Origin: Candidatus Poseidoniaceae archaeon
GTDB taxonomy: Archaea > Thermoplasmatota > Poseidoniia > Poseidoniales > Poseidoniaceae
Length of the DNA: 64,000 nucleotides
Direction of reading: 5' to 3'
Assembly: GCA_938030705.1 (NCBI GenBank)
Contig: CALHIR010000010.1
Location: 47,130-111,129, forward strand
Positions 606 through 55,165 of the stretch are shown here, piece after piece. A program made the position numbers and the translations under genes. Under the pieces are notes generated by a model. That model was not told the DNA's origin. It searched no databases and saw nothing but the letters and a program-made list of their open reading frames with translations. The stretch's first letter is position 1, and each line of letters starts with the position of its first letter.

Positions 606-5273
<4,668 letters not shown>

Positions 5274-5277
<4 letters not shown>

Positions 5278-26599: not shown

Positions 26600-26680
26600 C
26601 GGTTCACCTCGGTTAGGGTCGCCCCTTACATGTCGTGGGCGTGGACGACCGGTTAAGAAGCCCACCCTCGTGGCAAGGTC

Positions 26681-27664: not shown

Positions 27665-27673
27665 GGTGAATCC

Positions 27674-28819: not shown

Positions 28820-28891
28820 ACCACGCCAAACGTTTGGTTCGAGGCCGTGATTCATCGGTGTGTTCAAGTGATTTGACAGGATGGGAATTTC

Positions 28892-29383
28892 ATGCGAGGG
28901 CTGATGCGACGGGATGAAGATGCCGTTAGCCCCGTGATTGCGACCGTCCTCCTTCTCGCCATCACCGTCGTGCTTTCCAGCATGGTGTTCGTTTTGATGC
29001 AAGGGGCCTTGACCACGGTTGAGAAATCGGCCCCACAGGCAACCGTCAGCGTGCGGGCGCTCGACAACGGTTTCCACGTCGTGAGGATCACCAGCCTTGA
29101 CCAATCCATTGACCCCGCCCGTCTTCAATTCGATTTGCTCCCTGCGAACGTGACCGAATCCCTTCTCATCCGCGGTCAAGTTTCTGATGCAGATGTTTAC
29201 GGCGTTATCGGGACGGAAATCTCGTTCCATGATAGGGATGCAGGCTATTCGGTCACCCAAGGTGATTACTTCGTCATCGATTCCGAAACGATTGGGGCTG
29301 ACGACGGCACCTGGCGTTTCCGTCTGGTTGAGAAGACATCAGATACGCTCATTGTTGATGTTTCGCTCCCTGCGATGGCCTGA
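28892..29383 (+). CDS. archaeal type IV pilin-like protein (class III signal peptide, DUF1628-like)
   Basis: 163 aa. N-terminus RRDEDAVSPVIATVLLLAITVVLSSMVFVL matches the archaeal prepilin pattern (A-VSPVI-hydrophobic). Confidence 0.7.
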   Translation: MRGLMRRDEDAVSPVIATVLLLAITVVLSSMVFVLMQGALTTVEKSAPQATVSVRALDNGFHVVRITSLDQSIDPARLQFDLLPANVTESLLIRGQVSDADVYGVIGTEISFHDRDAGYSVTQGDYFVIDSETIGADDGTWRFRLVEKTSDTLIVDVSLPAMA

Positions 29384-31890: not shown

Positions 31891-33909
31891 TCAGCCATGA
31901 CGCCCAAAGTGGTGGTCCAAACTATCAATGGAGATTCGCAACGATGTCGGGCGTCCATGGACGCAGGCCCAAGGGTTTTGAATTCGGCGCATGTCATCAA
32001 GGAGGCGTCGCATTTCGGGTAAGGAAAGCGATTCATTGGCTTTCACGGCCCCTCGACAGGCGTTCATGAAGGCGATGTGGTCTTTCTTTGCTTCCATGGT
32101 TTCAAGCGGGCCACCATCAAGCGCTAAATCTTGAAGCAAATCGAGAAGGAAGGGTTTGATTTGGTCGCCCCCGAGGAGTTGCGGCGAGGCATTCAACACC
32201 CACATCTCTTTCTCTTTTGAGAGGTGGAACCCAAGGTCATGGAGCCGCTCATGATGTGCATCGACGAGGGCGGATTGCCTCGCATCGAGGTTCAGAGGAA
32301 GCGGAGAGAGCCGTTGTTGTGGCTCCCACGCCTGGCCACTGTGCCGCAATCGTTCGTATCGGACACGCTCGTGCAGGGCGTGCTGGTCGATGAGGAGCAA
32401 CTCGTCTTCAGCTTGGACAAGAATGTAGGAGTCCGCAAATTGTGCCAAAGGTTCCATGTGCGGAAGATCGTTCAAGTCTCCTTCGAGAGGGGCTTCTTCG
32501 CTCGGCCTTGACGTGGACCCAGTACCTGCATGTCGGTGCAGGGCGCGTTCAGCAGAAGAAAGAGGTGCAGCCATTGGTGCTGAAGGAAGGTTTGGGAGAA
32601 CCCCTTGTCCAAGAGGGGACGCTGACACAGGTCGCTCCTTTTCCGCCTTTGCTTGTTCTTCCGCTTCTTGGCCAACGAGGTTCAATTGCCGACCGGCAGC
32701 AAGCGCCCAGGCCGGTGGCCGAACGGAAGCTGTGGCGGTCTTGCCCTCCGGTTTTGCCGTCATGCCCGCCGCCGTTGAGATGGAGGCGTCAACCGTGGTT
32801 TCAACAGGCGGTCCGGTAAAGTAAGTTTCAACTGGTTTAGCAATCGATCCGCCTGAGAGTCCTTGAAGGCCAGGGATTTCACCCGTCGCATCGGGCTCGG
32901 TCGGCACGGCTTCAAGGGTGTAGGCAATGGCTCGTTCAAGCCGCTCCAAAACTCGCCAAGAATGACGAAGACGCACTTCCCGCTTCGTTGGATGGACGTT
33001 CACGTCCACTTCCTCGGGAGGGCATTGGAGGTTCACCACGGCCAACGGGTGGCGGCCTTGCATAAGGCGCGTTTTGTAGCCTCGGCGGATGGCTTGCAAA
33101 AACGGGCCTGCGCCCACAGGACGGCGGTTGATGAGAACGTGGATGTCGTCTCCCTTTCCTCGCGTGATGTCGGGTGTGCTGATCCACCCGCTCCAGCGTT
33201 CCTCGCCGGGGGCCTCCTCATCTTCGGGGGGTAATTTGAGTTCAACCAATTCAGTGGCCTGCGCACCCATGATGTCGTAAAGTCGGTCAAGCATGTTTTC
33301 CGTCGCCGGAACATTGAGCAGTGTTCTGCGTTCAGTTTTCAGGTGGAAACCGCAAGTTGGATGGGCAAGTGCATGGTCAACAACCACGTCCACGATTCGG
33401 GCCGTTTCTGTTTCTGGTCGTCGTTGGAACGCGAGTCGCGCAGGGGTGTTTTGAAAGAGATGTTCGACCGAAATGATGGTTCCGTTGGCCATTCCGTAGG
33501 GCTGGGCTTCGGACTTAATTCCGTCCTCCATCACGATGCTTGCACCCTGCGAACCTTCGGGTTTACTGGCTATTTTGAGGCGAGAGACCATACCAATGCT
33601 GGCCAACGCTTCACCCCGAAAACCGAGCGAGAGAATGGAGGCCAAGTCTTCTTTGCTGCTGAGTTTGGAGGTGGCGTGCCGGTCAAGGGCCAGGGAAAGG
33701 TCAGCTTGAGCAATCCCGCTGCCGTTGTCTTCAACCTCAAGACGGTCAAATCCGCCCCGTTCAACGGTGATGACAATGGAAGTTGAGCCCGCATCGAGGC
33801 TGTTTTCAATCAACTCTTTGACCACCTGTGCGGGGCGTTCGACAACTTCACCCGCTGCAATGAAACCGATGGTGGCTTCATCCAGCTGCCTGATTTTGTC
33901 TGGCTTCAT
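31891..33909 (-). CDS. mutL: DNA mismatch repair protein MutL
   Basis: 672 aa. GHKL ATPase N-terminus (VVKELIENSLDAGST, DNGSGI, GFRGEALASI). Pro/Ala-rich linker. Dimerisation C-terminus. Confidence 0.9.
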   Translation of the reverse strand: MKPDKIRQLDEATIGFIAAGEVVERPAQVVKELIENSLDAGSTSIVITVERGGFDRLEVEDNGSGIAQADLSLALDRHATSKLSSKEDLASILSLGFRGEALASIGMVSRLKIASKPEGSQGASIVMEDGIKSEAQPYGMANGTIISVEHLFQNTPARLAFQRRPETETARIVDVVVDHALAHPTCGFHLKTERRTLLNVPATENMLDRLYDIMGAQATELVELKLPPEDEEAPGEERWSGWISTPDITRGKGDDIHVLINRRPVGAGPFLQAIRRGYKTRLMQGRHPLAVVNLQCPPEEVDVNVHPTKREVRLRHSWRVLERLERAIAYTLEAVPTEPDATGEIPGLQGLSGGSIAKPVETYFTGPPVETTVDASISTAAGMTAKPEGKTATASVRPPAWALAAGRQLNLVGQEAEEQAKAEKERPVSASPLGQGVLPNLPSAPMAAPLSSAERALHRHAGTGSTSRPSEEAPLEGDLNDLPHMEPLAQFADSYILVQAEDELLLIDQHALHERVRYERLRHSGQAWEPQQRLSPLPLNLDARQSALVDAHHERLHDLGFHLSKEKEMWVLNASPQLLGGDQIKPFLLDLLQDLALDGGPLETMEAKKDHIAFMNACRGAVKANESLSLPEMRRLLDDMRRIQNPWACVHGRPTSLRISIDSLDHHFGRHG

Positions 33910-36560
33910 GTTCGCTCCTCCATGTCATGTTTCAGGGCATAAAGGACCTCGAGGGCTTGACGCGGGCTCAGATCGTCAACATTGGTCTCTTGCAGGCGTT
34001 GCATCATTCGCTCAACACTTGGCGACAACGCAGGCGGCGTTGGCGAAGAAGTTTTCATGGCTGCAGCTGCGAAATACCCCATCAGGCTGGCTTGGCCCGA
34101 ATCTCTTGATTGTGGTGCGCCGTGTTCACCCGCTTTTGCACCTCCTGCTTGCTGCTCAAGGAAGGCGAGTAAGTCGCTTGCACGCTCCACTACGCTTCGG
34201 GGTAGGCCAGCCAAAGCAGCGACTTGAACACCGTATGAATCATCGCATGGCCCATCTGCAACGGTGTGGAGGAAGCGAAGTTTCCCGTCGACTTGAGCCA
34301 CTTGGACATGGACATTGCACAACCCGTTTACCTCGCCCTCCAGGCCGATGAGTTGGTGGTAATGAGTGGCAAAAAGCGTCCGGGCACCGATTCTTGAGCA
34401 GATGTCCTCCGTGACGGACCACGCAATGGAAAGGCCGTCGAAAGTGGAGGTGCCTCGTCCAATCTCGTCCAACAGGACCAGGGAACGCTGCGTGGCCCGC
34501 TTGAGGATGTGGGCTACCTCGATCATTTCCATCATGAAGGTCGAACGCCCCCGCTTGAGGTCGTCACTTGCTCCTACCCGTGTAAAAATCCGGTCAACCA
34601 ATCCCACCTTGGCTTGCTTGGCGGGAACAAAACATCCGGCCTGTGCAAGAACAGTGACCAAGGCCACCGTCCGAAGGTAGGTGGATTTCCCACCCATATT
34701 GGGGCCCGTGATGAGCAGAAAACTCCGCTTTTGGTTCATCGAAACATCGTTGGGGACAAAACCGGACTGAGTTTCCAACACGGGGTGGCGAGCGCCATCA
34801 AGTTGGATTTGATGCTTGTCCGTGATTTCGGGTTTGGTCCAATTACGTTCCCTGCTCACCGATGCGAAGCACTGCAACACATCGATGGAAGCGACCCGTC
34901 GGGCGATGTCAGCCAAGGTCGCCGCCTGAGTGCCGCAATAGGTGCGAAGTTCGAGGAACCGGCGGTACTCAAGTTCTTTCAGTTTTGAATCGGCGGTGAG
35001 CAACAAGTCATCCCGCTCAACCAATTCCTCCGTAGTGTAGCGAGAGCCGTTGGTCAATTGTTGCTTCCTTCGCCACGTGTTTGGAACTTTTTCGATGTGC
35101 GCTTGGGTGACCTCGATGAACCACCCCACTTGTCGGTTGTTCTTGACCTTGAGCGAAGGGATAGCCAATTCCTCTCTGAGCCGTTGTTCAAGGTTGGTGA
35201 ACCAAGCCTTTCCTTCTGACGTGACGCTTCGCAAGCGGTCAACTTCCTCGTCCACCCCGGCTCGTAGGAGTCCTCCGTCCCGCAAACCGAGGGGAGGATG
35301 TTCGTCCAAGGTGTTGTGAATGGTCTCCCTCATCTCTTCAAGTTGGTCGAGGCCTTCACTGAGGTGGATGAGGAGTGGGTCCTGGCTGTCATTGCACCAT
35401 TGCACGAGGGCGGGCATCCGCTCAAGGGCATGGGCTGTGGCGACCAAATCCCTTGCATTACTGCGTTGGTAAGCGAGTTGGGTGGCCAATCGCTCCATGT
35501 CTCGGATTCCCTTCAAGGAGGTGCGCATGCCGTCCAACCGGCGAGCCGATCGTGTCAGGGTCGCCACGGCTTGATGGCGCGTTTGAATGGCCTCCGTGTT
35601 GGAAAGCGGATGCAAGAGCCAGGTTTTCAGAAGCCGCCTCCCCATGGCGGTTCGACATCGGTTGAGGGTGGAAAGCAAACTTCCGTCGTATTCCCCTGCC
35701 AAGGTTGACGTCAATTCCAAATTCCGTAGGGTGGTTTGGTCCAACAGCAGGTGGCCTTGTTCTTCCAGAAGTTCAACGTCTTGAAGGGGGATGTCTTGGC
35801 GCATGTGAACCGTCGCGAGGTAGTCAGCTGCGAGGCCTGTAGCCGAAATGGCCAACGGAGCATGGTCCAGGTCCAAGTGCCCCAAATCCGCCACATCAAG
35901 CATGCTTCGCAATCGTTCTTCTCGTTTTGCTTGGCTGAGTTGATGTTGGCTCACCATGGTAGACTCCAAGCGGGGAAAGAGGGGGGCGAGGTGGTCGTTT
36001 TCGGCGTCTTTTGGTGAGATCACAAGCTCGCTTGGTTGCCATCGGAGAAGGTCATCTTGGAGGCGAGTGAATCGTTCGGGCCCCTCGTGTGAACTCGCCC
36101 ACGCCTTCCCGGTGGATGCATCAAGCACGGCGAGGCCCAAGGCATCTGGGCCCAGCACAACACCGGCGAGCAGGGACTGCTCATCACCTTCCAACAACCC
36201 CTCCTCATAGAGGCTGCCGGGCGTGTAAACTCTGGTCGCCACTCGCTCCAGTAATTTGGCTCCAGGTCTCAATTCTTCTTCTTGCTCTGCTACCGTCACT
36301 TTGTAGCCAGCCCGGAGCATGGTGCGCAGATGGTCTTCAAGCCCGTGCCATGGGAAGCCCGCCATGGGGATGGGTTGGTCGGCGTTTTTGTCTCGAGAGG
36401 TCAGCGAAAGGCCAAGCACATCCGCCGCTACTTCTGCATCGTCGTGAAAGAGTTCGTAGAAATCTCCCATTCGGAAGAAGAGAACCGTGTCAGGATGCTG
36501 TTCTTTGATGTCAAAGAACTGGTCCATCATTCCTCTTTTTGACATGGTTGCACCCTCCAT
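33906..36560 (-). CDS. mutS: DNA mismatch repair protein MutS
   Basis: 884 aa. Mismatch-binding N-terminus (FFRMGDFYELF), Walker A (ITGPNMGGKSTYLR), DE (VLLDEIGRGTST), HTH C-terminus. 4-nt overlap with mutL. Confidence 0.92.
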   Translation of the reverse strand: MEGATMSKRGMMDQFFDIKEQHPDTVLFFRMGDFYELFHDDAEVAADVLGLSLTSRDKNADQPIPMAGFPWHGLEDHLRTMLRAGYKVTVAEQEEELRPGAKLLERVATRVYTPGSLYEEGLLEGDEQSLLAGVVLGPDALGLAVLDASTGKAWASSHEGPERFTRLQDDLLRWQPSELVISPKDAENDHLAPLFPRLESTMVSQHQLSQAKREERLRSMLDVADLGHLDLDHAPLAISATGLAADYLATVHMRQDIPLQDVELLEEQGHLLLDQTTLRNLELTSTLAGEYDGSLLSTLNRCRTAMGRRLLKTWLLHPLSNTEAIQTRHQAVATLTRSARRLDGMRTSLKGIRDMERLATQLAYQRSNARDLVATAHALERMPALVQWCNDSQDPLLIHLSEGLDQLEEMRETIHNTLDEHPPLGLRDGGLLRAGVDEEVDRLRSVTSEGKAWFTNLEQRLREELAIPSLKVKNNRQVGWFIEVTQAHIEKVPNTWRRKQQLTNGSRYTTEELVERDDLLLTADSKLKELEYRRFLELRTYCGTQAATLADIARRVASIDVLQCFASVSRERNWTKPEITDKHQIQLDGARHPVLETQSGFVPNDVSMNQKRSFLLITGPNMGGKSTYLRTVALVTVLAQAGCFVPAKQAKVGLVDRIFTRVGASDDLKRGRSTFMMEMIEVAHILKRATQRSLVLLDEIGRGTSTFDGLSIAWSVTEDICSRIGARTLFATHYHQLIGLEGEVNGLCNVHVQVAQVDGKLRFLHTVADGPCDDSYGVQVAALAGLPRSVVERASDLLAFLEQQAGGAKAGEHGAPQSRDSGQASLMGYFAAAAMKTSSPTPPALSPSVERMMQRLQETNVDDLSPRQALEVLYALKHDMEERT

Positions 36561-36654: not shown

Positions 36655-37863
36655 TTATGCTTGTGTGCGAAGTTGCTTGACTGCGTAGGTGAACATCATG
36701 GTGAGCAACGCCCCACCTCCGAGGAGGAACAACAGGTTCAAGAATCCACGGCCACTCTCTATAGAGCCTTCTGCTGTGATGTCGATGGACCATTGAATGG
36801 GCTCGCCTTCAGCATTTGTGCCGTGAACGTGAATGTAGTCGTCTTGAGCCCCCGCATCGGAAAGTTCAACCGGCACGGGGCGACTGAGTTGGTGCACCTC
36901 AAACACGCCTTCATCGTACGTTGAAATCGTGGTCGAGCCAAGAGCACCGATGAACCACGCCGTGCCTTCCTGGTCGCTCACCACCATGGCCGAGGGTGCA
37001 TCCAATGCCCGCACCTCTTGATTTGATGCGATGACCAAACTTTCAACGGTGCCACCGACGATCATGTCGGTTCCTGAAGAACCAAAGGAATGAAAAATAC
37101 CTGAGGCGAACATCTGGACGTTTCGAAGAACGGGCGTTGCTTCGTCTCCGTTCCATGTGATCCAACCAAGAACTGGCCTTGGCTCGGGGGTTGCGGGGCT
37201 TGAACCGTCGGCCCCTGATGTGCTGATATGGGTGCCAAGACCTACCCAGAGTCCTTCGGAGTGCGCTTCTACATGGTGCCATTGAACTCCAGACGAGGTT
37301 GACATCGGGGCGGTGGGTACCATGCCAACGACGCCTCGGAAGGAGTTCGAGCTTCCTTCTTGGGTGAGCATCAACCGCTGCGTGGCCGCTTTGTTTTCAA
37401 ATTCAGCAACATCGAGCACGGTAAAGGCACTCTCCTCTGACCCATAATCATAGGTCACCATGGTGTTACCCTGCAAACCTACCAGTTGATTGGGTTGAAC
37501 AGAGAACAGGATTTCGCCGTCGGGCATGGCTTTCAAGAAATTGACTTCATCGCCCAGATCCGTGCTCCCAGGACTGTAGACCGCGCTGACCGTACCGTCA
37601 TCCACGTGTTCGGTGAACAGGTGGTAGCCTGCCCCTGGGGCGTAAACGAGGGAGGTGTAGGAGGCGTTGTTTTGATGGTATTCGATGTCAAGGACCAATC
37701 CACCCTGATGCTGTGCAGTGACATTGGTGATGCGGTCGCCGACAAAATGGCCGGTAGCACTGATGGCGAACGCTCCGAGCAACACGAAAAGGGTGAAAAA
37801 GGACAGTGTAAGCCACTGGTGTTCGGATTCCTCCTCAAGCAGTCGGCGCCACCCTCCAGCCAT
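36655..37863 (-). CDS. membrane-anchored extracytoplasmic hypothetical protein
   Basis: 402 aa. N-terminal TM (LTLSFFTLFVLLGAFAI), beta-rich ectodomain, C-terminal TM. Confidence 0.5.
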   Translation of the reverse strand: MAGGWRRLLEEESEHQWLTLSFFTLFVLLGAFAISATGHFVGDRITNVTAQHQGGLVLDIEYHQNNASYTSLVYAPGAGYHLFTEHVDDGTVSAVYSPGSTDLGDEVNFLKAMPDGEILFSVQPNQLVGLQGNTMVTYDYGSEESAFTVLDVAEFENKAATQRLMLTQEGSSNSFRGVVGMVPTAPMSTSSGVQWHHVEAHSEGLWVGLGTHISTSGADGSSPATPEPRPVLGWITWNGDEATPVLRNVQMFASGIFHSFGSSGTDMIVGGTVESLVIASNQEVRALDAPSAMVVSDQEGTAWFIGALGSTTISTYDEGVFEVHQLSRPVPVELSDAGAQDDYIHVHGTNAEGEPIQWSIDITAEGSIESGRGFLNLLFLLGGGALLTMMFTYAVKQLRTQA

Positions 37864-38632: not shown

Positions 38633-40411
38633 ATGCGTGTTGCGGTTCTTAAGGAAGACAATTGTCAACCGAAGAAGTGTAACGACGAGTGTCAAGTGTT
38701 CTGTCCACCTGTCCGAAACGGGCAAGAATGCATCATTATGGACGAGCAGACCGGGAAGCCCCACATTTCCGAAAGCCTGTGCATCGGATGCGGCATCTGC
38801 ATCAACAAGTGCCCCCATGATGCTCTGATCATCGAAAACCTTCCCAGTGAACTCGAGACCGATATGATTCATCGTTATTCCATGAACGGTTTCCGTTTGT
38901 TCCGCTTACCAACGCCCTCCAAAGAAAGCGTTGTGGGTATTCTTGGCCCTAACGGGATGGGCAAGTCCACCGCCATCAGTGCCCTATCTGGCCGCATGAC
39001 CCCCAATCTGGGGGATTGGCTTGACCAAGAACCAGATTGGGACAACGTCATCGAATCGCTTCCGAAAGGAGAACTCAGGGATTTCTTTATCGCCATCCAA
39101 AAGGGGAGCATCCGCGTGGCGCTCAAACCACAAAACGTGGATAAACTCCCAAAACGCATCAACGGTACCGTGCACGATCTTTTGACGAAAGTGGACGAGC
39201 GAGGCCTGCTCGAAGCAACCACGCGTTCGTTGGGCATCGACCATCTCCTCCAACGCACCGTTCAGCAACTTTCGGGTGGTGAATTGCAGCGCATGGCCAT
39301 CTGCGCTACGATTCTCCGAGACGCGGAGGTGTACTTTTTCGATGAACCCTCTTCATATCTTGACATCCACGAACGAATGCGGATCGTGCGTATTATCCAA
39401 GACCTCGCCGAAACCAAGCGTGTCATCGTTATTGAACACGATTTGGCGGTCCTCGATGTGTTGGCCGATCTGGTTCACATCGTGTACGGAAAGAAGGGGG
39501 CTTTCGGCATCTTTACGCCAGCACGCTCGACGCGCCAGGCCATCAACACCTACCTTGACGGTTTTCTTCCTGAAGAGAACGTCCGCATTCGGGATAAGCC
39601 GATCAAATTCCTTCGTCATCGTGACCGGAACGCAGAGATTGGTACGCCGGTCGTCAGCTGGGGCGGGCTCGAGAAGCAACTTGGTGAGTTTAAACTCACT
39701 TCAGGCGAGGGGGCCGTACACCGGTCTGAAGTCGTCGGTGTCGTCGGTTCAAACGGTACCGGAAAATCGACCATGGTCAAAATCCTCGCTGGTGAGCATG
39801 AATACGACGGGGGCTGGGTCACTGCCGACGCCACGATTTCCTACAAACCCCAACATATCGATGTGGATATTGACGGTTCGGTTCAACTGTGGTTGGACAG
39901 TGAATTGGGCCCCCGTTGGCGAAGCGGTGAGTTCAACGTGAACGTCATCAAAGCCTTAGGCATCGACCAACTCTTGCCGAAGCGAGTCAAGAAACTCTCG
40001 GGGGGGGAGCGTCAAGCGGTCTCCATTGCCGTTTGCTTGGGACGCGAGGCCGACCTTTACCTGCTGGACGAACCTTCGGCTCATTTGGACGCAAACGCTC
40101 GTATGGAAGCCGCCAAAGCCATCCGAAGAACGATGGAAGCCAACGAGAAGTCGGCCTTTGTTATTGATCACGACGTTTATTTCATCGATATTGTTTCGGA
40201 TTCGCTCTTGGTCTTTGAGGGTAAGGGCGGGGTTGAGGGTCGCGCAACTGGCCCTTACAACCTGAGAGAAGGTATGAATCGTTTCTTGGCAGGGGTTGAC
40301 GTCACCTTCCGACGAGACCACGATTCACGTCGCCCCCGAATCAACAAGAACGAGAGCAGAAAAGACCGGGAACAACGAAACAGTGGTGACTACTATTCCT
40401 ACGATGCATGA
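38633..40411 (+). CDS. abce1: ribosome recycling factor ABCE1 (RNase L inhibitor; twin 4Fe-4S plus two ABC domains)
   Basis: 592 aa. N-terminal ferredoxin-like CxxCxxC...C clusters. Two Walker A motifs (GPNGMGKST; GSNGTGKST), two LSGGE signatures. Confidence 0.92.
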   Translation: MRVAVLKEDNCQPKKCNDECQVFCPPVRNGQECIIMDEQTGKPHISESLCIGCGICINKCPHDALIIENLPSELETDMIHRYSMNGFRLFRLPTPSKESVVGILGPNGMGKSTAISALSGRMTPNLGDWLDQEPDWDNVIESLPKGELRDFFIAIQKGSIRVALKPQNVDKLPKRINGTVHDLLTKVDERGLLEATTRSLGIDHLLQRTVQQLSGGELQRMAICATILRDAEVYFFDEPSSYLDIHERMRIVRIIQDLAETKRVIVIEHDLAVLDVLADLVHIVYGKKGAFGIFTPARSTRQAINTYLDGFLPEENVRIRDKPIKFLRHRDRNAEIGTPVVSWGGLEKQLGEFKLTSGEGAVHRSEVVGVVGSNGTGKSTMVKILAGEHEYDGGWVTADATISYKPQHIDVDIDGSVQLWLDSELGPRWRSGEFNVNVIKALGIDQLLPKRVKKLSGGERQAVSIAVCLGREADLYLLDEPSAHLDANARMEAAKAIRRTMEANEKSAFVIDHDVYFIDIVSDSLLVFEGKGGVEGRATGPYNLREGMNRFLAGVDVTFRRDHDSRRPRINKNESRKDREQRNSGDYYSYDA

Positions 40412-40450: not shown

Positions 40451-42193
40451 ATGCCTGTAGGTCTTCCCCCTCGTGGAGGTCCACTTGGGCGAACCAGAGG
40501 CCGGATTTCAGCGAGTTCGCTGACGACCTATTTGCGATGTCCAAAACAGTGGCTCTTTGCCTATCAAATCGGTCTTCAAGGGCCCACGCGACCCTCACAA
40601 ATCTTGGGTATCGTGCTTGAAGACGCTCTCTGCGAGTTGTTGATGATGCACCCACCAAAGGTTTCCAGTTTTGAGGAGTTGAACACTTGGGCCTCTGGCA
40701 ATGTCGCCGACGTGGCTCAGCGAGCTTTGGCTACCGGCGAGACGATGTGGGATGAGGTGCTTTGGAAAACAAGCGAAGACGCATGGGATGAAGTCGATGT
40801 AGCCTCGTTGGAGGAACGTCTCGCTGGCGGTTTGAGCCTGTTCTATGAAGAAGTCCACGCATGCTTCAATCAAAACGGAGGACCCTACCTCCATCAACGA
40901 AGAACCGGTCAACAGCCGTTTGTGGTTCCCGAACCTGCTCAAAGCACCGTGCCGGTCTTCCCGCTTCCCGACAAGGTGAGGGATGTTGAGAAACGAGCAT
41001 GGGCAGCCTCTTCTTCGCCGTCATGGTCGGCACCCGAAGCCCCCATCACCTGGCATGAAGCCTGGGAGTGTGCTCGACCGTGGTTCAAAGACCCGCGTGT
41101 CCATCAGCCCCAACGCCTTTACCACCCGGATGGTTGGGCCTCAGGTGAATTGGATATGGTCCTTCGTTGGGACGGTCAGGTTCGAATCGTCGATATCAAA
41201 TCAGGTTCTCCGGGCTCGGCTTTTGCCTCCTCTCTTGAACACCAACTCCGGTTTTACGCATGGTTGTGGCATGAAACTCATGACGGTCAAACCGTCAACG
41301 GCATGGAAGGCTGGTACCTCAACGGCGGGCATCGCGTCCCGTATGCTCCGCCGGCCAAGAACGAGATGGCGGGGCTCACCTCCACCTTCCACGAACACCA
41401 CCGCGCCATGCAGCGTGCTGAAAAAGGCGTGAAGTCCTTCCCCGTGGCTCCTTCAGAGGCCTGTCAGGGTGAAGCAACAGGTTGTGGCTGGTGTGCTGTG
41501 TCTCGCACGGCCGCTGGCGAATGGTCCGTGCCCGAGCATCTCTCTTGGATTACGACCCTGCCGGAGGTGTCCATGAAAACCCCCTATGCGCCGCTTGGTG
41601 ATGTCCAAGGGCGCGTCGCCGTCCGAGGTCGTTTAACCGGGGCTTGGGGGCCGATGCCCAATCATTTCGCTGAACCCGTTTTGGGTGCGGTTTTGGTCGT
41701 TGGTCAGCAACACATCATCGTTGAGGAAAGCGAACCCGGTGCATTTTCTCAACTGCATGACCACATGGAACAGGAGATCGTGCTGGTGGACGCACTTCCG
41801 GGGGTGTGGCGGGACCAACCTCGTCTCTATGTTGATGCCACCACTGTTTTGCATTCTCACGCCGATGTGGATAAGGCAACGCTCCCGGAACTGACACGTC
41901 TGGGCCTGCTTCGGACACGAACCAACGTCAAGGGGCATGTCATCGGCATCCGTCGCCGTTCCGGTACGCGTGTTGATGGAAAACCATGGGGGATGCTCAC
42001 GCTGATGCTCTGGGATGGACATCATCTCGCCGAGGTGGTGGCCTTCGGTGCCAGCATCAATCAACGCTTGCTGAGTTTGCGACCCGGCGATGGCGTGGCG
42101 ATGACGGGCGTCGAACTTGGGTGGCGGTCGGGTCTTCTGCAACTCCGTATCGACAATCGGAAAACCCGATTGGAAACTTTCACTCAACATTGA
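40451..42193 (+). CDS. Cas4/RecB-family Fe-S PD-(D/E)xK nuclease fused to C-terminal OB-fold domains (paralog A)
   Basis: 580 aa. N-terminal Cys motif SASSLTTYLRCPKQW. Nuclease core (GELDMVLRWDG...RIVDIKSG, QLRFYAWLW). C-terminal Cys triad CQGEATGCGWC. Then two RPA/SSB-like OB-fold stretches (VAVRGRLTG..., GHVIGIRRRSG...WDGHHLAEVVAFG). Confidence 0.7.
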   Translation: MPVGLPPRGGPLGRTRGRISASSLTTYLRCPKQWLFAYQIGLQGPTRPSQILGIVLEDALCELLMMHPPKVSSFEELNTWASGNVADVAQRALATGETMWDEVLWKTSEDAWDEVDVASLEERLAGGLSLFYEEVHACFNQNGGPYLHQRRTGQQPFVVPEPAQSTVPVFPLPDKVRDVEKRAWAASSSPSWSAPEAPITWHEAWECARPWFKDPRVHQPQRLYHPDGWASGELDMVLRWDGQVRIVDIKSGSPGSAFASSLEHQLRFYAWLWHETHDGQTVNGMEGWYLNGGHRVPYAPPAKNEMAGLTSTFHEHHRAMQRAEKGVKSFPVAPSEACQGEATGCGWCAVSRTAAGEWSVPEHLSWITTLPEVSMKTPYAPLGDVQGRVAVRGRLTGAWGPMPNHFAEPVLGAVLVVGQQHIIVEESEPGAFSQLHDHMEQEIVLVDALPGVWRDQPRLYVDATTVLHSHADVDKATLPELTRLGLLRTRTNVKGHVIGIRRRSGTRVDGKPWGMLTLMLWDGHHLAEVVAFGASINQRLLSLRPGDGVAMTGVELGWRSGLLQLRIDNRKTRLETFTQH

Positions 42194-42215
42194 ACCACCA
42201 TCAAGGCACTGAGGC

Positions 42216-44099
42216 TTGAAAAAGAGTGGGTGCTTTGGTCGTTTCATGCCCGTGCACATGGCCAAGAGAGAGAACGATGCCGTCGGGCCTTACAACCGGA
42301 TGTCGGCCAGTCAAGCCAACACCTACTTGGCTTGTCCCCGCCTTTGGTTTTATCAGAAAGTTTACCGGTTCAAAATGCCCCAAATTCCGGTGCTTTTTGT
42401 CGGGAGGGCGGTTGAGGAAGCCGTCTGTCATGTGCTGCGTGAGTCTCCAGGTTTTATCGTTTCAAACGCAAGCCAAAACGCCATTGGTTCTTCGCCATAC
42501 AACGAGGATGGTCAACCCCTGCAAGGAAAGGAGTACGTTTGGCCAGCGATGGGTTTGATGCCATTTCCCCCCGAAGAATTGCCGCAATCCAGAGCTGCGC
42601 TCGAAGCGTGGGCTATCGAGCGGTGCCGCATCCATCTGCCGCCGGCGTTGGAGCGCATGCGGCTGGAATGGGAAAAGGATGAACGAAAAGCAGGGGAGTG
42701 GAGTCAGGTCGATCCCGACCGATGCATGGCCATGGTTGAGAGCGGCCTCCGATTTCACCTTGATGAAGTTGAACGCTGTTTTAACCAAGACGGGGGGCCG
42801 AACAAAGAGGAGTGGCGTCGAGGTGAACGGGCGCTCTGGCCCGCTCCCGATGGTTTTCCACACCAACCCTTCGAAGGGGGTCACCCCCTCCGTGGCGAAG
42901 GTCATGTTTCATGGACCGAGGCCTGGGAACTCGCGCGCCCTTGGTTCGTTGACCCAAGTGCACCAAAGTTCACCATGAATGCCATTCATCCCGAGCATTG
43001 GTTTCAGGGGGAATACGACTTGGTTTATCGCTGGTCCGGAACGCCGGTCATCGTTGATCTCAAAGCGAGTTTGGGAGCAAACGACCGTTCGGGAGATTAT
43101 GTTGAACAACTCAAGATGTACGCTATGTTGTGGTACGTTACCCACAACCGACAAGAAACGGTTGGTGGTCTCCAAATTTGGTACCTTGGCCACCCCAGCA
43201 TCAAGTCCATCCCCGTCCCCAGTTCGGAGGAGATGGAAGCGATTGAGGCGGAGATGAAAGCCCTCTGGGACGACTTGAAAGACGCCACACCATCACTCGC
43301 TGATTGTCCGCCTGCGCCCAAAGCGATGCGAGGTTTCTCGCCGGGTGGAAAGCCGTCAGAGCCGCCTTCGACATCCCGGTGCGAAGGGTGTGATTGGCGT
43401 GCCGTGTGTCCGGGGGGCGAAGGGACTGACGAACCACGACTTTCGTCTTCCGTTCAACTTCCAAGTTTCAATCAACAAACGCCACTTCAGGAAATTGGTC
43501 TGCTCAACCCACGAGCGACTGTCCGGGGGGAATTGTTCTCAGTGGGCTATGTAAGAGATAACATACCTTTGAGGATGACGTTGAAACAAGGCACCAATTC
43601 GGCTCACATTCAAGTGGTCTCAACGGTCAATGCTGATGGTGAACCAACGGTTGCTGTGCCCGCCATGAAAGGCGCTAAAGTTCTGCTTAAGGACGCCGTC
43701 TTCACCATCAATTGGAAAGGTGAAATCGTTCTGAAAATGGACCCCTTCGCTCGGCTAGAGGCGGACGATGACCCCGATGTGGAATCCTTTGACTTGTTTG
43801 ATTTTCAAGCGAAGCATAACGTTGGTGGCACCGTGATCTACACTTATGAAAAATCAGGTGTTGGTAAAAACGGGAAGGCTTGGTCTCGAAAAGGCCTCAT
43901 GTTGATGGACCATACGGGTGCCTGTAAGGTCGAGGGTTGGGCAGACGACTGGAATTCACAATACGCCATGCTTACGGTTGGCGACGTCGTTGTTATCGCA
44001 AACGTTGGTTTGGATGCGTGGGCTTCCGAAATCCGTTGTGATTATACTCGGAATTCGCGACTGCAAATCATTGAGCGTGTGGACCGCTCAGCCGCCTGA
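42216..44099 (+). CDS. Cas4/RecB-family Fe-S PD-(D/E)xK nuclease fused to C-terminal OB-fold domains (paralog B)
   Basis: 627 aa. Same architecture as paralog A: YLACPRLWFY; GEYDLVYRW...VIVDLKAS; EQLKMYAMLW; CEGCDWRAVC; RPA-like OB fold (MLMDHTGACKVEGWADDW...GDVVVIANVG). The start may be Met15 (about 42258). Confidence 0.7.
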   Translation: MKKSGCFGRFMPVHMAKRENDAVGPYNRMSASQANTYLACPRLWFYQKVYRFKMPQIPVLFVGRAVEEAVCHVLRESPGFIVSNASQNAIGSSPYNEDGQPLQGKEYVWPAMGLMPFPPEELPQSRAALEAWAIERCRIHLPPALERMRLEWEKDERKAGEWSQVDPDRCMAMVESGLRFHLDEVERCFNQDGGPNKEEWRRGERALWPAPDGFPHQPFEGGHPLRGEGHVSWTEAWELARPWFVDPSAPKFTMNAIHPEHWFQGEYDLVYRWSGTPVIVDLKASLGANDRSGDYVEQLKMYAMLWYVTHNRQETVGGLQIWYLGHPSIKSIPVPSSEEMEAIEAEMKALWDDLKDATPSLADCPPAPKAMRGFSPGGKPSEPPSTSRCEGCDWRAVCPGGEGTDEPRLSSSVQLPSFNQQTPLQEIGLLNPRATVRGELFSVGYVRDNIPLRMTLKQGTNSAHIQVVSTVNADGEPTVAVPAMKGAKVLLKDAVFTINWKGEIVLKMDPFARLEADDDPDVESFDLFDFQAKHNVGGTVIYTYEKSGVGKNGKAWSRKGLMLMDHTGACKVEGWADDWNSQYAMLTVGDVVVIANVGLDAWASEIRCDYTRNSRLQIIERVDRSAA

Positions 44100-44288
44100 T
44101 GAGATGGTGGTTACCAAAAGCTCCACGTGCTGTTGGAGCGGGGTTGAATGCGGTAGAACCGTTCCGTCGTAACTGACGATCACCATCGAGGGCAAGACAT
44201 TGGCCAGTTCCAAAGCCTTGCGAACGGTGGTACCGGGGTCAACTTGGACGGTGATGTCAACATCCCTCCCGTGAAAGCGGACGTCCAT
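44088..44288 (-). CDS. MoaD/ThiS/SAMP-type ubiquitin-like small sulfur-carrier protein
   Basis: 66 aa (MDVRFHGRDVDITVQVDPGTTVRKALELANVLPSMVIVSYDGTVLPH...TISSGG) with a beta-grasp pattern ending in Gly-Gly. The longer 120-aa ORF (44088..44450) reads through the tRNA-Ser sequence and is an artefact. Confidence 0.6.
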   Translation of the reverse strand: MDVRFHGRDVDITVQVDPGTTVRKALELANVLPSMVIVSYDGTVLPHSTPLQQHVELLVTTISSGG

Positions 44289-44343
44289 GACATCCCGACC
44301 AAACATCATGCTTATGACGGTGGCGCAAGAGCCGGGGGATGGA

Positions 44344-44426
44344 GCCGAGGTCGCATAGCCCGGTATTGCGGTGGATTCGAAATCCACTGTCCCTTGGACG
44401 CGGGGGTTCAAATCCCTCTCTCGGCG
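44344..44426 (+). tRNA. tRNA-Ser (anticodon CGA), class II with long variable arm
   Basis: Manual fold. Acceptor GCCGAGG/TCTCGGC (one G-U pair). D-stem GCA/TGC. Anticodon stem GTGGA/TCCAC with loop TTCGAAA, giving anticodon CGA. Variable stem GTCC/GGAC. T-stem GGGGG/CCCTC with loop TTCAAAT. Discriminator G. The opposite-strand ORF translation RDLNPR...FESTAIPGYAT is the typical through-tRNA artefact. Confidence 0.8.
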
Positions 44427-44433
44427 CTCTGTT

Positions 44434-45189
44434 TCACATGTAGAACGCATCGTGAGAGGTGGTCATTTCCTTCACGAGGTCTTCCTTCACGGAGGGTGCC
44501 ATGGCTTCGAGTTTTTCACGTAACCATTCGCCACCGCCGGTGGGGACGGTCAAGCCAAAGCCAAACCATCGCTCGAGGTGTTCAATCACCCTTTGAGAAC
44601 CCATGATGTCGGCGCTGGTACCAACGCTGGTCGCAATGACGCAAGCCGAATTGAGTTCGTAAAGCGGGCCCATGGAAGCGAGCAAAGCGGGCATGCCAAC
44701 GGCACCAGATTTGGGTTTGTCTCGTCGGACATCAACCCCCATGCTTTCCATGTCAATTCGGAAGGATGCCGAACTTGCAACCGCAAAGGTCTCTTTGTTC
44801 TCCGGCTTGTCAAACATGCCAGCGAGCACCAGTACTGTCGCTACGCCTTGGTCTTGGAAGAAGGCCATTAATTCCCCGGCCAACACGGATTGTTGACTCG
44901 GTTCGGTGGGTTGTGTTTTTCCAGTCAGGGTGATCAACGGGATTCCACTGGGTGTTTGTATTTGGCGAACGGTCAGATGCGGGGGTGCGAGCAAGCCATC
45001 CTCATCCAAGTGGGCATGCGGGGGCAAGCCAACGGGGTGAAGGCGAACGAGTTCAACCGATTCGTGAAGTTCGCAAACGGAGTCTACGGCCATCTTACCG
45101 ATGTTGCCAACGCCGGGGAAGGCCACCAAGGCTGTTGCACCACGGGGGAGTTCGGTGGTGCCTCCTCGCCATTCAATTCGCATGGTCAT
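44434..45189 (-). CDS. PAC2 (proteasome assembly chaperone 2) family protein
   Basis: 251 aa. N-terminal LVAFPGVGNIGKMAVD matches the PAC2 G-x-G-N-V/I-G motif. Confidence 0.5.
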   Translation of the reverse strand: MTMRIEWRGGTTELPRGATALVAFPGVGNIGKMAVDSVCELHESVELVRLHPVGLPPHAHLDEDGLLAPPHLTVRQIQTPSGIPLITLTGKTQPTEPSQQSVLAGELMAFFQDQGVATVLVLAGMFDKPENKETFAVASSASFRIDMESMGVDVRRDKPKSGAVGMPALLASMGPLYELNSACVIATSVGTSADIMGSQRVIEHLERWFGFGLTVPTGGGEWLREKLEAMAPSVKEDLVKEMTTSHDAFYM

Positions 45190-45279
45190 GAACTGCCCAT
45201 CGACGCAACACGCAGTATAATGTTTGAGATTCCAAACCGTCGGTTGCCCCTGATTTGGTGCACTTCTTTTGCCGGGCGT

Positions 45280-45519
45280 TCACTCTTCTTCTGAGGCAGC
45301 TTGTGACTTCAAGTCTTCAAGGTTGGGCAAGGTAGCGAGTTGAGCGGGCCACGACGCTTCCTCAACGCCGTTCATCTTTCGACGGAGTGCGGCTCGGTGA
45401 TCTTCTGGAGACCACTTCAAGGGGGCAGCAGCTTGTGCACGCTCACCACAGGACGGGCAGGTTGTTTTGAGTGAGAACGCTCCACATGAGAGGCATTGTT
45501 GCATACGTTGTTTTGCCAT
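45280..45519 (-). CDS. nop10: H/ACA ribonucleoprotein subunit Nop10
   Basis: Internal Met of ORF 45280..45552 gives MAKQRMQQCLSCGAFSLKTTCPSCGERAQAAAPLKWSPEDHRAALRRK. This is a zinc ribbon plus the P-[KR]-[FW]-SP-D motif. Lies immediately upstream of aIF2-alpha, as in other archaea. Confidence 0.7.
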   Translation of the reverse strand: MAKQRMQQCLSCGAFSLKTTCPSCGERAQAAAPLKWSPEDHRAALRRKMNGVEEASWPAQLATLPNLEDLKSQAASEEE

Positions 45520-45523
45520 GGAA

Positions 45524-46312
45524 TCACTCTCGTTCGGCGGTCGCCTCACCACCGGCAGCGGTCATGTGATTGACCACGGCCTGGGTTGCCTCTTCCCACA
45601 TCGTCTCTGCAACCTTGAAATCAGGTGCACGAAGTTCGATTCTGTAGGAAGGTGCACCATCATAGAAGCATTTGACCTCGATTTCTTCGGTTTCATTAGA
45701 GAGGGATTCGGCCGCCTCTAAGGCTGAGCGAATCACCGAGACGCCATTCATGTCGTTGATGCTCAACACCAAGGTGCCACGTACCTCAACAAACGGCGGA
45801 ATGATGTTTTCCACGGCGAGTTCGATGAAGGCGGTCATCCAATCGCCTTCGAAACCGGCGTTTTGGAGCGCACCTTCCTGCATTGCTGCTTCTTCAAAAG
45901 CGGTGTAAAGTCCACCGAAGGCTTCGGTCAATTCAATCGACTGTTCAGCGACTTCGCTTTCGCTCCATCCGACTTTTTCACCGAGGACCTTGAGGAGTTG
46001 ATGGGCTCGTTGTTCGTTCTTCCATTCTTGGAGACGGTCTCGTCGGCGTTCTTCTGAAACCGACTTGAGGGAAAGTTCCAGTGAGGAGCCATCTCGGCGA
46101 GTTCGCATGACTTTGCAAATCACACGTTGGCCTTCTCGAACGAAACCTCGGATGTTTTTGACCCAACCTGAGGCGATTTCGCCAATGAAGATGAAGCCCT
46201 CAATCCCCTCGTATTCGTCAAGGAGAACGTACGCACCGTTTTGTTTGACCGTGGTGATGGTTGCGACCACCAATTCCCCTTCTTCGGGGGTTGCGCGGTC
46301 TTGATTTGACAT
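45524..46312 (-). CDS. eif2a: translation initiation factor 2 subunit alpha (aIF2-alpha)
   Basis: 262 aa. S1 domain (EGELVVATITTVKQNGAYVLLDEYEGIEGFIFIGEIAS), helical and alpha-beta C-terminal domains. Confidence 0.9.
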   Translation of the reverse strand: MSNQDRATPEEGELVVATITTVKQNGAYVLLDEYEGIEGFIFIGEIASGWVKNIRGFVREGQRVICKVMRTRRDGSSLELSLKSVSEERRRDRLQEWKNEQRAHQLLKVLGEKVGWSESEVAEQSIELTEAFGGLYTAFEEAAMQEGALQNAGFEGDWMTAFIELAVENIIPPFVEVRGTLVLSINDMNGVSVIRSALEAAESLSNETEEIEVKCFYDGAPSYRIELRAPDFKVAETMWEEATQAVVNHMTAAGGEATAERE

Positions 46313-46327
46313 GGAGGCTCAGCCTCC

Positions 46328-46498
46328 TCAGTTCAGTGCTTCCACAACGGTGCAACCGACGAGGTCTGCTTTGCCGCCGGCTGGCTTGGTCAAGGTTGCG
46401 CTGCAAACACCGCAAGCGATGGATGTCGTGGCGCGTGAAAAGATGATGGATTCGCTTCCGCAATCGCGGCAACTTACTCGGAGAAAATGGTTGGTCAT
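46328..46498 (-). CDS. rps27e: 30S ribosomal protein S27e
   Basis: Internal Met of ORF 46328..46648 gives MTNHFLRVSCRDCGSESIIFSRATTSIACGVCSATLTKPAGGKADLVGCTVVEAL, the C4 zinc finger typical of S27e. Confidence 0.8.
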   Translation of the reverse strand: MTNHFLRVSCRDCGSESIIFSRATTSIACGVCSATLTKPAGGKADLVGCTVVEALN

Positions 46499-46508
46499 TG
46501 GGTTCACC

Positions 46509-46793
46509 TCATCGATCCACAAGTTCGAATTTCTTTGCACGCTTGCAAGGTGCGTAGTGGGCTTTTCCGGTTTCTGTGCACCGGTAAAGAATGTTGACGC
46601 GCTTCGTGGGCTTTTCACGACCGTCGGGTTTTGGACGTGGGAAACCACGGTAACCAGCCATCACTCGGCGGAAACGTCGCTGACCCCAGCGAAGCTCGGA
46701 AGCTCGCTTTTTCTTGACACGTTCAACGGTGTGCAGGGTGTGCTTGCCAGCAGACGGGCTGTATCGCATAACTTGACGGGGTCGCTTCACCAT
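46509..46793 (-). CDS. rpl44e: 50S ribosomal protein L44e
   Basis: C-terminal 94 aa of ORF 46509..47102: MVKRPRQ...GKHTLHTVERVKKKRASELRWGQRRFRRVMAGYRGFPRPKP...KPTKRVNILYRCTETGKAHY. The upstream part of that ORF (TTG start) is an artefact. Confidence 0.8.
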   Translation of the reverse strand: MVKRPRQVMRYSPSAGKHTLHTVERVKKKRASELRWGQRRFRRVMAGYRGFPRPKPDGREKPTKRVNILYRCTETGKAHYAPCKRAKKFELVDR

Positions 46794-46921
46794 GTGAACA
46801 CCGAAGCGTTCAGCCCACAGAGGAGGGGTATTTATGCCCTCCGCCACCGCTTTCGGTGCGTTCGGGGCACTGCGGTTCTCCCGGTGGGATTCTCTATAAA
46901 TGTCTCCGTACAGCATACGCC

Positions 46922-47719
46922 ATGGAAGAGGCGACGCAAGCCATCGTTTTCTTCTGGCTCGCAGGGCTATTCGTCGTCGTGGGGGGCATGTTGGCGTTCT
47001 TTTCCAAGGTTCAAGGGCAGCGCCGTCTCGGCGGTGCCCTCTTTGGCTTGGGCCTCCTTTCGTTGATGTTGACGCCCTGGACATTGCCCTTCTCTCCCTC
47101 AAGCGCCTTCGGGCACCTCCTCGGTAGTTTGGTAGGTCCAGGTGTTTTGTTGGGGGTTGGTCTCTACCAAATCGCTTTCTCGGGCCATGTGCCCGTTGGC
47201 CGCTTGAGCCGGACCGATCGCACCGTTGGCATCGTCATGGTGGTGGTGGGCGTGTTGTGGCTTGAGGCGATGCACTGGTGGGTCTTGACCCCGACCTATC
47301 CCGGCGAGGTCAACAGGTATTGGTACATTTTTTGGCCAACCATGTTGCTCGGTGTTCTTACGCTTTCATCCGCTGCTTACGTCTTGGTTGGCTTGGTGGG
47401 CCAACAGCGTCAACAAGAGCAACGATTGATGTTGGTTACATCGGCTTTGGCTATCGTTCTGATGGTCTTGGGGGCGATGTTTAACGGGCCGAGTGTGGAC
47501 CATCAGCGTTTTGCGACTGAACTGATCTTTGCCGCCGCTGATATCTTCGGGGCCATGGTCGGTGCTGCGGTTGCCATCCTTCTCTTTGCTGTCGTCCTTA
47601 CCGTCTATGAATCCCAACAACCTGCCCCTCAACGGCTCGCCCCGCCAACCGAACAGCAACTCGAACAAGCCAGTCAAATCATCGCCCAACACGTCGGAGG
47701 TGAATCCGAAGATGAGTGA
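46922..47719 (+). CDS. polytopic membrane protein, hypothetical
   Basis: About 7 predicted TM helices. Start trimmed to MEEATQAIVFFW. Confidence 0.5.
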   Translation: MEEATQAIVFFWLAGLFVVVGGMLAFFSKVQGQRRLGGALFGLGLLSLMLTPWTLPFSPSSAFGHLLGSLVGPGVLLGVGLYQIAFSGHVPVGRLSRTDRTVGIVMVVVGVLWLEAMHWWVLTPTYPGEVNRYWYIFWPTMLLGVLTLSSAAYVLVGLVGQQRQQEQRLMLVTSALAIVLMVLGAMFNGPSVDHQRFATELIFAAADIFGAMVGAAVAILLFAVVLTVYESQQPAPQRLAPPTEQQLEQASQIIAQHVGGESEDE

Positions 47720-54313: not shown

Positions 54314-55165
54314 ATGTCGCCACCGAAGAAAGTTGATGTTAATCCAGACGAGCAAATCGTACTTCGCGAGTGGCGTGAACTGATCGTGGAAAACTACGAA
54401 AATGACATTGCTCGGTTGGAAGGCTTGGAGGAAAGTGTGCAGGGTTTTCATGTTGAACACGCCCTCATGGACCAAAAAGACACGCTCCGTCGCTTCTTTC
54501 ACGAAAAGCCAACGCGAGCCTTGGAACTCGGTTCGAGAATCATGCGAGAACAATTCGACAACCACCATATTCCAACTCGGCCGGTCCTGCGAGTTGTTGG
54601 TCTTTCCGAAAATTACCTCAACCGTGTGGACGACTTAAGGATGCGTGACCGAAACGATTTGGTTTCCCTTGACGTGAAAATCAACGAGGTGTCTCACGCT
54701 TACGGCTGGCTCAAGTTGGCCGTCTACGAATGCATGGACTGTGAATCGCGCGTGGAAGTTCCCCAGCGGCGAGCTCGTGAACGAGAGAGCCCCGTGCTCT
54801 GCCGCCCTTGCCTCAACCAAGCCATGGAGGGCTTCAAGAACACCGATATCCCAAGGAGCTTCATTCGTCCACAAAGTGATTTCCTGATGGTCGTTGAAGA
54901 GTGCAAGTACGAGGATGTTCAGGACATCAGCATGAGTCAAATCACGTACAACAGCGAACATCATCTCATCAACTGTTCAACCCGGAATCAAATTCTTGGG
55001 ACCATCACCGATGATCTGGTCGACCAACTTCGGCCGTCGACCTACATGCGAATCAACGGCATCGTGCGTGTTCAGCCCGTACCTGACCGGACCTTCTCCA
55101 AAGATACCCGTCGCCTTCTCTCCATTGACATCTTGAGCGTCGAGGAACTTCATATTGAGGAATGA
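54314..55165 (+). CDS. MCM N-terminal-domain-only protein (zinc finger plus OB fold, no AAA+ module)
   Basis: 283 aa. AVYECMDCESRVEV...VLCRPC (C4 zinc motif) followed by an OB-fold segment (ILGTITDDLVDQLRPSTYMRINGIVRV) that aligns with the MCM N-terminal domain C. The gene ends 3 nt before an opposite-strand gene, so no ATPase domain follows. Confidence 0.55.
   Translation: MSPPKKVDVNPDEQIVLREWRELIVENYENDIARLEGLEESVQGFHVEHALMDQKDTLRRFFHEKPTRALELGSRIMREQFDNHHIPTRPVLRVVGLSENYLNRVDDLRMRDRNDLVSLDVKINEVSHAYGWLKLAVYECMDCESRVEVPQRRARERESPVLCRPCLNQAMEGFKNTDIPRSFIRPQSDFLMVVEECKYEDVQDISMSQITYNSEHHLINCSTRNQILGTITDDLVDQLRPSTYMRINGIVRVQPVPDRTFSKDTRRLLSIDILSVEELHIEE

Follow-up and report, generated by a model that had tools for sequence, protein, structure and literature searches.

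Paired nuclease genes with RPA-like OB folds form a conserved core locus in Poseidoniia archaea

The question raised by the locus described here is what two adjacent nuclease genes, which we call A and B, do for the archaeon that carries them. They lie in a stretch of 64,000 nucleotides from contig CALHIR010000010.1 of a Candidatus Poseidoniaceae archaeon (assembly GCA_938030705.1), referred to below as the window, and each encodes a PD-(D/E)XK nuclease of the Cas4-AddB-Dna2 class followed by two OB folds that resemble those of RPA. An initial annotation of this DNA had suggested that the pair processes single-stranded DNA (ssDNA) ends or flaps, acts in resection, or serves as an anti-invader nuclease. 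Our analysis gives good support to A and B being a real, conserved and uncharacterised genome-maintenance module, and we lean, with somewhat better than even confidence, towards a housekeeping pair of Fe-S nucleases that bring RPA-like modules of their own, amounting to 'Dna2 plus RPA' minus the helicase, and that act in core genome maintenance in Poseidoniia.

Both open reading frames (ORFs) are present on the plus strand where the initial annotation had placed two adjacent homologous genes, and BLASTP aligned the two proteins end to end with 26% identity (E 2e-42), a full-length alignment which marks them as true paralogs in tandem. The reported length of A, 580 aa, was borne out, but that of B, 627 aa, belongs to the mechanical ORF that runs from TTG 42216 to 44099. 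Almost all B orthologs are 609–621 aa long and have the N-terminus MPV, as does A, and because the orthologs are of 617 aa and begin MPV, the start of B is most likely ATG 42246 and not TTG 42216. The strong conservation of both genes also ruled out a spurious ORF or a pseudogene.

Using Pfam we identified the PDDEXK_1 domain (PF12705, gathering cut-off 22 bits) in A with 61.7 bits (E 1.3e-16) and in B with 54.7 bits (E 1.8e-14; in B the whole model is covered), which confirms a PD-(D/E)XK nuclease of the Cas4/AddB/Dna2 class. For each paralog, residue conservation was examined in ~120 orthologs, with identities as low as ~48–51% and with truncated sequences left out. Invariant in A are the cysteines C30, C338, C345 and C348 and the catalytic residues D235, D248-I-K250, Q265 and Y269, while the corresponding invariant residues of B are, in the 627-aa numbering, C40, C389, C392 and C398, and D268, D281-L-K283, Q298 and Y302 (in the 617-aa numbering C30, D258, D271-L-K273, Q288xxxY292 and C379-x2-C382-x5-C388). 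The RecB-family QxxxY motif and the D...D-[IL]-K block that had been picked out in the initial annotation are therefore invariant in both paralogs, as is the set of four cysteines, one N-terminal and three C-terminal, although the spacing first given for the latter had to be corrected, B having the canonical C-x2-C-x5-C and A a non-canonical C-x6-C-x2-C. Judged by this conservation, both paralogs keep every catalytic and putative cluster-ligand residue, and both are predicted to bind an Fe-S cluster. An extra pair of invariant cysteines was also seen in each (C61 and C138 in A; C71 and C188 in B, 627-aa numbering), one in the first long helix and one in the helical insertion. This pair, which is not conserved in the planctomycete relatives described below, could be a disulfide or an additional metal site.

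Models of both proteins were generated with AlphaFold2 (AF2) from a 67-sequence alignment, with a pLDDT of 89.4 and pTM of 0.87 for A and a pLDDT of 88.4 and pTM of 0.83 for B. The high pTM values suggest that the OB folds pack against the nuclease and are not floppy. Comparison of the models with known structures (Table 1) showed that A and B both have the fold of Dna2/AddB-type Fe-S nucleases, with the N-terminal β-α-α unit that bears the first cysteine visible in both models. In Dna2 and AddB this Fe-S-stapled β-α-α element, together with an α-α extension, makes a threading tunnel (PMC4716839), and our models support an equivalent loop in A and B that would turn the catalytic groove into a tunnel, one that could be threaded only by a free ssDNA end.

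Table 1. Fold comparison of the A and B models with known structures (scores; length of alignment in brackets)
Structure	A model	B model
Dna2 (5EAN)	15.1 (270 aa aligned)	14.4 (291 aa aligned)
AdnA (9NP6)	13.5	13.8
ACE1 (9IAB)	13.3	15.0
AdnAB (6PPU)	12.8	13.0
Exo5	not among matches listed	10.9
MGME1	10.7	9.6
Cas4-Cas1 fusion (7MI4)	10.6	9.7
Cas4 (8D3L)	9.8	10.6

In the C-terminal part of each protein, the AF2 models contain two five-stranded β-barrels (residues 389–469 and 490–576 in A; 423–506 and 524–610 in B), and the 'one or two' RPA/SSB-like OB folds of the initial annotation can accordingly be set at two per protein. With a sequence profile of the C-terminal half, the second OB fold (OB2) matched P. 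abyssi RPA1 (E 3e-5) and the first (OB1) weakly matched Sulfolobus SSB (E 0.02); RPA was reached by profiles only, and single-sequence phmmer searches against the PDB returned nothing relevant. Foldseek matched the tandem OB region of B to RPA70 (4GOP_C at 1e-8), 1JMC, Teb1 and HIN200, tandem-OB structural matches were likewise obtained for A, and the OB folds of both proteins resemble RPA70 DBD-A/B, P. abyssi RPA1, Teb1 and POT1. Furthermore, an invariant aromatic residue in OB2 (F532 in A, W575 in B) aligns with the tryptophan of the RPA 'LWD' strand, which we take to be a base-stacking position by analogy with RPA70 F238/W361. From these resemblances the OB folds of A and B are predicted to bind ssDNA. 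Using hhalign, OB1 against OB2, and the C-terminal domain of the planctomycete relatives against each, gave co-linear but weak alignments (E 0.0013–0.02).

A and B are members of the PDDEXK_1 Cas4-AddB-Dna2 class, but they are not Cas4 proper, Dna2, AddAB/AdnAB or ACE1. They share with eukaryotic Dna2 (5EAN) the pattern of Fe-S ligands that staples N- and C-terminal extensions together, and with Dna2 plus RPA the principle of coupling an ssDNA-end nuclease, in A and B a predicted one, to RPA-type OB folds (PMC4716839). Unlike Dna2, they have no SF1B helicase domain (Pfam, NCBIfam) and no β-barrel or stalk, the region behind the nuclease consisting of the two OB folds, and they form a paralog pair with only 11–13% sequence identity to Dna2. 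Moreover, Dna2's own OB fold lies at the N-terminus and is not DNA-binding, RPA acting in trans, whereas A and B each have two RPA-like OB folds fused at the C-terminus. Like the bacterial AddAB and AdnAB enzymes (9NP6, 6PPU), A and B are two paralogous, co-encoded proteins, each with a RecB-type nuclease, and the AddB-type Fe-S cluster is common to AddAB and, by prediction, to A and B; the archaeal proteins differ in being ~600 aa as opposed to 900–1200 aa, in having no SF1 motor or motor-like domains (Pfam, NCBIfam, AF2), and in carrying OB folds as their DNA-handling module instead. Compared with archaeal RPA/SSB proteins (P. abyssi RPA1, 8AA9/8AAJ), they have the aromatic residue at the 'LWD' position but are not stand-alone, lack a Zn-finger OB or winged-helix domain (Pfam, NCBIfam), and have a strongly diverged OB1. 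In the literature we found no description of an OB-fused Cas4/RecB nuclease in archaea, nor of the repair gene complement of Poseidoniales, and the public names of A and B orthologs are 'hypothetical' or 'PD-(D/E)XK nuclease family protein' and, in a few records labelled automatically, 'Cas4 (RecB family)', which upholds the earlier impression that the architecture is undescribed.

The distribution of the family was determined from sequence searches. Word-indexed searches returned >300 A-type and >500 B-type proteins, whose named sources are Poseidoniales, Poseidoniaceae, Poseidonia or 'Thermoplasmatota' metagenome-assembled genomes (MAGs). An exhaustive HMMER search of 1.84 billion representative proteins with a family profile gave 574 matches (E<=1e-3), among which fragments are numerous; all full-length archaeal matches sort as A-type or B-type, the divergent ones again coming from Poseidoniales/Poseidoniia, and in this set the combination of a nuclease with two OB folds was found in Poseidoniia only. 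The exceptions among the HMMER matches were three bacterial proteins of ~445–477 aa, with a nuclease and a single OB-like C-terminal domain. They point to a rare bacterial sister family of ~25 clusters (~430–480 aa), one of them named Planctomycetes, and the planctomycete proteins (P0312, P0340, P0360, P0442 and others) are the nearest relatives outside Poseidoniia, matching the family profile with E values of 1e-22 to 1e-32. These resemble A and B in having a nuclease with a helical insertion, the C-x2-C-x5-C spacing and then a C-terminal OB-like domain, and differ from them in having one such domain and not two, no paralog partner and a bacterial host. Of the two paralogs, B is the nearer to the bacterial proteins and has the same cysteine spacing as they do, which suggests that B lies closer to the ancestral form and that A is derived. 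At two sister-family loci on Planctomycetes-type contigs (L081 7001-8392 and L082 7001-8320) the gene adjoins one for peptidase M28 and lies near cytochrome c genes. No viral relatives of A or B were found in IMG/VR contigs, those of Poseidoniales viruses included.

Scanning one genome per GTDB species gave 484 relatives, and we examined the genomic context in the best 80 loci, all from Poseidoniales-type MAGs or single-amplified genomes (SAGs). Where the contig is long enough, tblastn gave the order MutS(-), orf402(-), L10e(+), ABCE1(+), A(+), B(+), followed by a small ORF with a GG terminus(-) and tRNA-Ser(CGA)(+), and then by PAC2/COG2047(-), Nop10(-), aIF2alpha(-) and S27e(-). ABCE1 lies directly 5' of A in 80/80 loci, and B directly 3' of A in 68 of the 69 with enough sequence, with gaps of ~40–50 nt (in the window 39 nt between ABCE1 and A and 52 nt between A and B). 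Across 80 species the pair is near-universal and single-copy and keeps its place among core genes, and GC content is uniform, that of A and B being the same as that of the flanks. This fixed order and uniform GC indicate a vertically inherited core locus and not a variable or defence island, and horizontally acquired DNA was rejected as an explanation on the same GC evidence. The initial annotation was correct in placing ABCE1 upstream and a tRNA-Ser gene downstream, but its view of the site as the boundary of a variable locus was contradicted: the pair belongs to a syntenic block, and variation is confined to a slot on the far side of the tRNA. A variable island at the tRNA gene was rejected accordingly, A and B being on the conserved side of it.

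These results bear directly on the anti-invader reading, in which A and B would be a defence nuclease of the Cas4, ACE1 or DruK type. In its favour, PADLOC gave weak matches to Cas4 and DruK models, and some JGI records automatically name B orthologs 'Cas4'; A and B also share with Cas4, solo-Cas4 and ACE1 the PDDEXK_1 family, the four-cysteine set and the RecB motifs. However, the PADLOC and PHROGs matches (Cas4, DruK, exonuclease) are generic, at the level of the domain, and were rejected as evidence of defence, and with the NCBIfam Cas4 equivalog (TIGR00372) A scored 21 and B 32.1 bits against a cut-off of 65. Cas4 and ACE1 are single-domain proteins of ~180–270 aa encoded with cas1/cas2 or pAgo or alone, whereas A and B have a large helical insertion, two OB folds and a core locus, and no cas1/cas2 locus was seen where the contig extends far enough. 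Likewise, ACE1 is co-encoded and complexed with long-A pAgo, while the conserved neighbourhood of A and B contains no Argonaute, nor any other defence gene, and the similarity is structural only (PMC12094033). A phylogenomic survey of Cas4 lists fusions to helicases and to Cas1, but no OB fusion and no fixed paralog pair (PMC5704561). With the fixed position of the pair in 80 species, a base composition that matches the surroundings and no homologs in IMG/VR, the anti-invader role put forward in the initial annotation is contradicted, and we regard it as extremely unlikely.

The same neighbourhood brings in two further explanations. A and B could be an RNA-processing nuclease tied to translation or ribosome recycling, with OB folds that bind RNA, and this would fit the position of A on the strand of ABCE1 after only 39 nt, the constancy of that adjacency across the loci, and the apparent co-transcription with L10e-ABCE1 and the tRNA gene. 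Against this, the OB matches significant at the sequence level are to RPA and SSB only, the characterised members of the nuclease class act on DNA, and archaeal replication and repair genes are often embedded in translation clusters (PMC2643942), so that a role in RNA processing appears highly improbable. The pair could alternatively be the excision nuclease of bacterial-type MutS-MutL mismatch repair, removing the nicked strand as ssDNA after incision by MutL. MutL and MutS lie 4 kb upstream, MutS is linked to A and B in nearly every locus that extends far enough, and we know of no excision exonuclease assigned in archaea with imported MutSL. However, MutSL is on the opposite strand with three unrelated genes between (orf402, L10e and ABCE1), the linkage tells little when the whole region is syntenic, and the planctomycete relatives occur without it; this explanation we consider very unlikely.

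In the reading that we favour, the tandem OB pair would capture ssDNA at a flap, an overhang or a resected end and feed the free end to the nuclease, whose Fe-S-stapled arch, like that of Dna2 and AddB, would let nothing but a free ssDNA end through to the active site. The outcome would be 'Dna2 plus RPA in one polypeptide' with no helicase motor, and the pathway served may be the processing of replication flaps or forks, or end resection for recombination; the ssDNA end, flap or resection role first proposed for the pair can be retained as a plausible inference. A and B would act together, most likely as a hetero-oligomer, since the two genes have stayed neighbours with their catalytic residues fully intact, and a split of strand polarity between them is possible, as for the nuclease domains of AddAB/AdnAB.

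Two further versions of this proposal are less probable. One is that A and B form a motor-less analogue of AddAB/AdnAB for double-strand-break resection, in which a separate helicase (e.g. Hel308) unwinds the DNA and the A-B heterodimer degrades both strands, possibly as a stand-in for HerA-NurA or Mre11-Rad50. Adjacent paralogous RecB-type nucleases with intact active sites do mirror AddA/AddB and AdnA/AdnB, B and its bacterial relatives have the canonical AddB/Cas4 spacing C-x2-C-x5-C, and a Hel308-like helicase is encoded in the window, though 26 kb off; neither A nor B has a helicase domain, however, and no helicase gene is linked to them, which leaves this version, a sub-case of our preferred explanation and not exclusive of it, as an unlikely one. 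The other is that A and B assemble into a self-contained complex, two nuclease domains and four OB folds in all, that is the principal machine for DNA-end resection or flap processing in Marine Group II; working with no helicase, it would do the work of both RPA and Dna2 (or AddAB) and would replace or bypass the canonical archaeal HerA-NurA/Mre11-Rad50 or Dna2-type machinery, and this too we hold to be unlikely.

Several findings weigh against the housekeeping 'Dna2 plus RPA' reading or parts of it. Mirror-tree analysis gave r = 0.95 for A-B, with controls of 0.94 for A-MutS and 0.96 for B-MutS, and hence no excess that would speak for a heteromer. The gene of the bacterial sister family is a singleton among housekeeping genes, and one apparent OB-like domain suffices there. 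At one locus (L048, SAG AG-333-I22, ~6071-6920) B is missing and A is followed directly by the SAMP-like small ORF and the tRNA-Ser region, which could be a real deletion or an artefact of single-cell assembly. The neighbours of the pair are mostly translation genes, with no helicase or other partner in the conserved neighbourhood, and because the whole region is syntenic, any single adjacency, such as that to MutS/MutL, is uninformative.

Poseidoniales (Marine Group II), which have no cultured representatives, are described as outnumbering all other planktonic archaea in the surface ocean (PMC6461757). Their replication and repair toolkit is known by annotation transfer only, and A and B appear to be a near-universal core component of it that is annotated as 'hypothetical' or 'PD-(D/E)XK nuclease'. 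The pair would represent a natural covalent fusion of the Dna2-RPA partners, duplicated as in AddAB/AdnAB without the motors. If our reading is true, it would show how a cell can organise the processing of ssDNA ends with no helicase, provide a compact mesophilic model of OB folds that hand ssDNA to a tunnel nuclease, and add a missing piece to the picture of genome maintenance in a lineage of archaea that is ecologically dominant.

The coordinates of A, B and their domains, and of the neighbouring features, are collected in Table 2. The L44e-S27e-aIF2alpha-Nop10 cluster is often joined to replication genes (PCNA, PriS, Gins15) in archaea (Berthon et al., PMC2643942); in the window no replication gene is attached to it, and ORFs resembling membrane proteins lie beyond L44e.

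Table 2. Features of the A/B locus (positions in the window)
Feature	Coordinates	Strand	Remarks
Gene A	40451..42193	+	580 aa; PD-(D/E)XK nuclease, predicted Fe-S, plus two OB folds (ORF, Pfam, AF2)
A nuclease domain	40502..41515	+	~aa 18-355
A OB fold 1	41603..41866	+	~aa 385-472; AF2 β-strands 389-469
A OB fold 2	41906..42184	+	~aa 486-578; invariant aromatic F532
Gene B	42246..44099	+	617 aa from ATG 42246; A-like architecture, paralog of A
B nuclease domain	42297..43445	+	~aa 18-400 (617-aa numbering); helical insertion longer
B OB fold 1	43503..43769	+	~aa 420-508; AF2 strands 423-506
B OB fold 2	43809..44081	+	~aa 522-612; invariant W565 (617-aa numbering; W575 in 627-aa)
ABCE1	38633..40411	+	39 nt upstream of A
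tRNA-Ser(CGA)	44344..44427	+	ARAGORN; downstream of B; same place in six other loci scanned
MutL	31891-33909	-	bacterial-type mismatch repair; beyond MutS
MutS	33906-36560	-	overlaps MutL by 4 nt; 4 kb upstream of the pair; syntenic across Poseidoniales by tblastn
L44e-S27e-aIF2alpha-Nop10 ('LSIN') cluster and COG2047/PAC2	44434-47102	-	complete

The only variable slot is the one between tRNA-Ser(CGA) and the PAC2 gene, which measures 0–3.4 kb in other genomes. Among its contents (L066 11990-15035; also L027, L028, L042 and L043) are a small membrane protein rich in Gln and Pro, a 333-aa protein without known identity and, in L066, a run of N. The small ORF that precedes the tRNA gene (44088..~44309, minus strand) encodes ~66–73 aa ending in ...VTTISSGG and is convergent with B, the two overlapping by 12 nt. 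Its conservation extends to other Poseidoniales (e.g. L066 11651.., minus strand). The product has no Pfam match but, with its C-terminal GG, looks like a ubiquitin-like protein of the SAMP/ThiS/MoaD type. The mechanical ORF at this position (44088..44450, minus strand) reads through the tRNA-Ser gene.

Identity of ABCE1 to the window protein is bimodal across the loci (L013, L015, L018, L020, L029, L032, L037, L044, L045 and others), at ~66–79% or 82–98%, also between genomes in which A, B and MutS are equally distant. In the low-identity group the L10e coordinates are shifted by ~30 nt, a pattern that points to recombination or allelic replacement of ABCE1 in some lineages. ABCE1 distances correlate poorly with those of all other genes.

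Elsewhere in the window we identified a bacterial-type DNA gyrase, GyrB/GyrA (624-5277, plus strand), the Hel308/Hjm-like helicase (11818-14424, plus strand; DEAD and 'Archaeal helicase domain 4'), and a 283-aa protein (54314-55165, plus strand) whose sole Pfam match is MCM_OB and which corresponds to an MCM N-terminal domain only, without the AAA+ part. Five large ORFs of 402–681 aa have no Pfam match (9081-11126 and 18065-19747 on the plus strand; 25496-27088, 27524-29260 and 36655-37863 on the minus strand). The 402-aa ORF between MutS and L10e is syntenic and evolves very fast, with 27–84% identity across the order.

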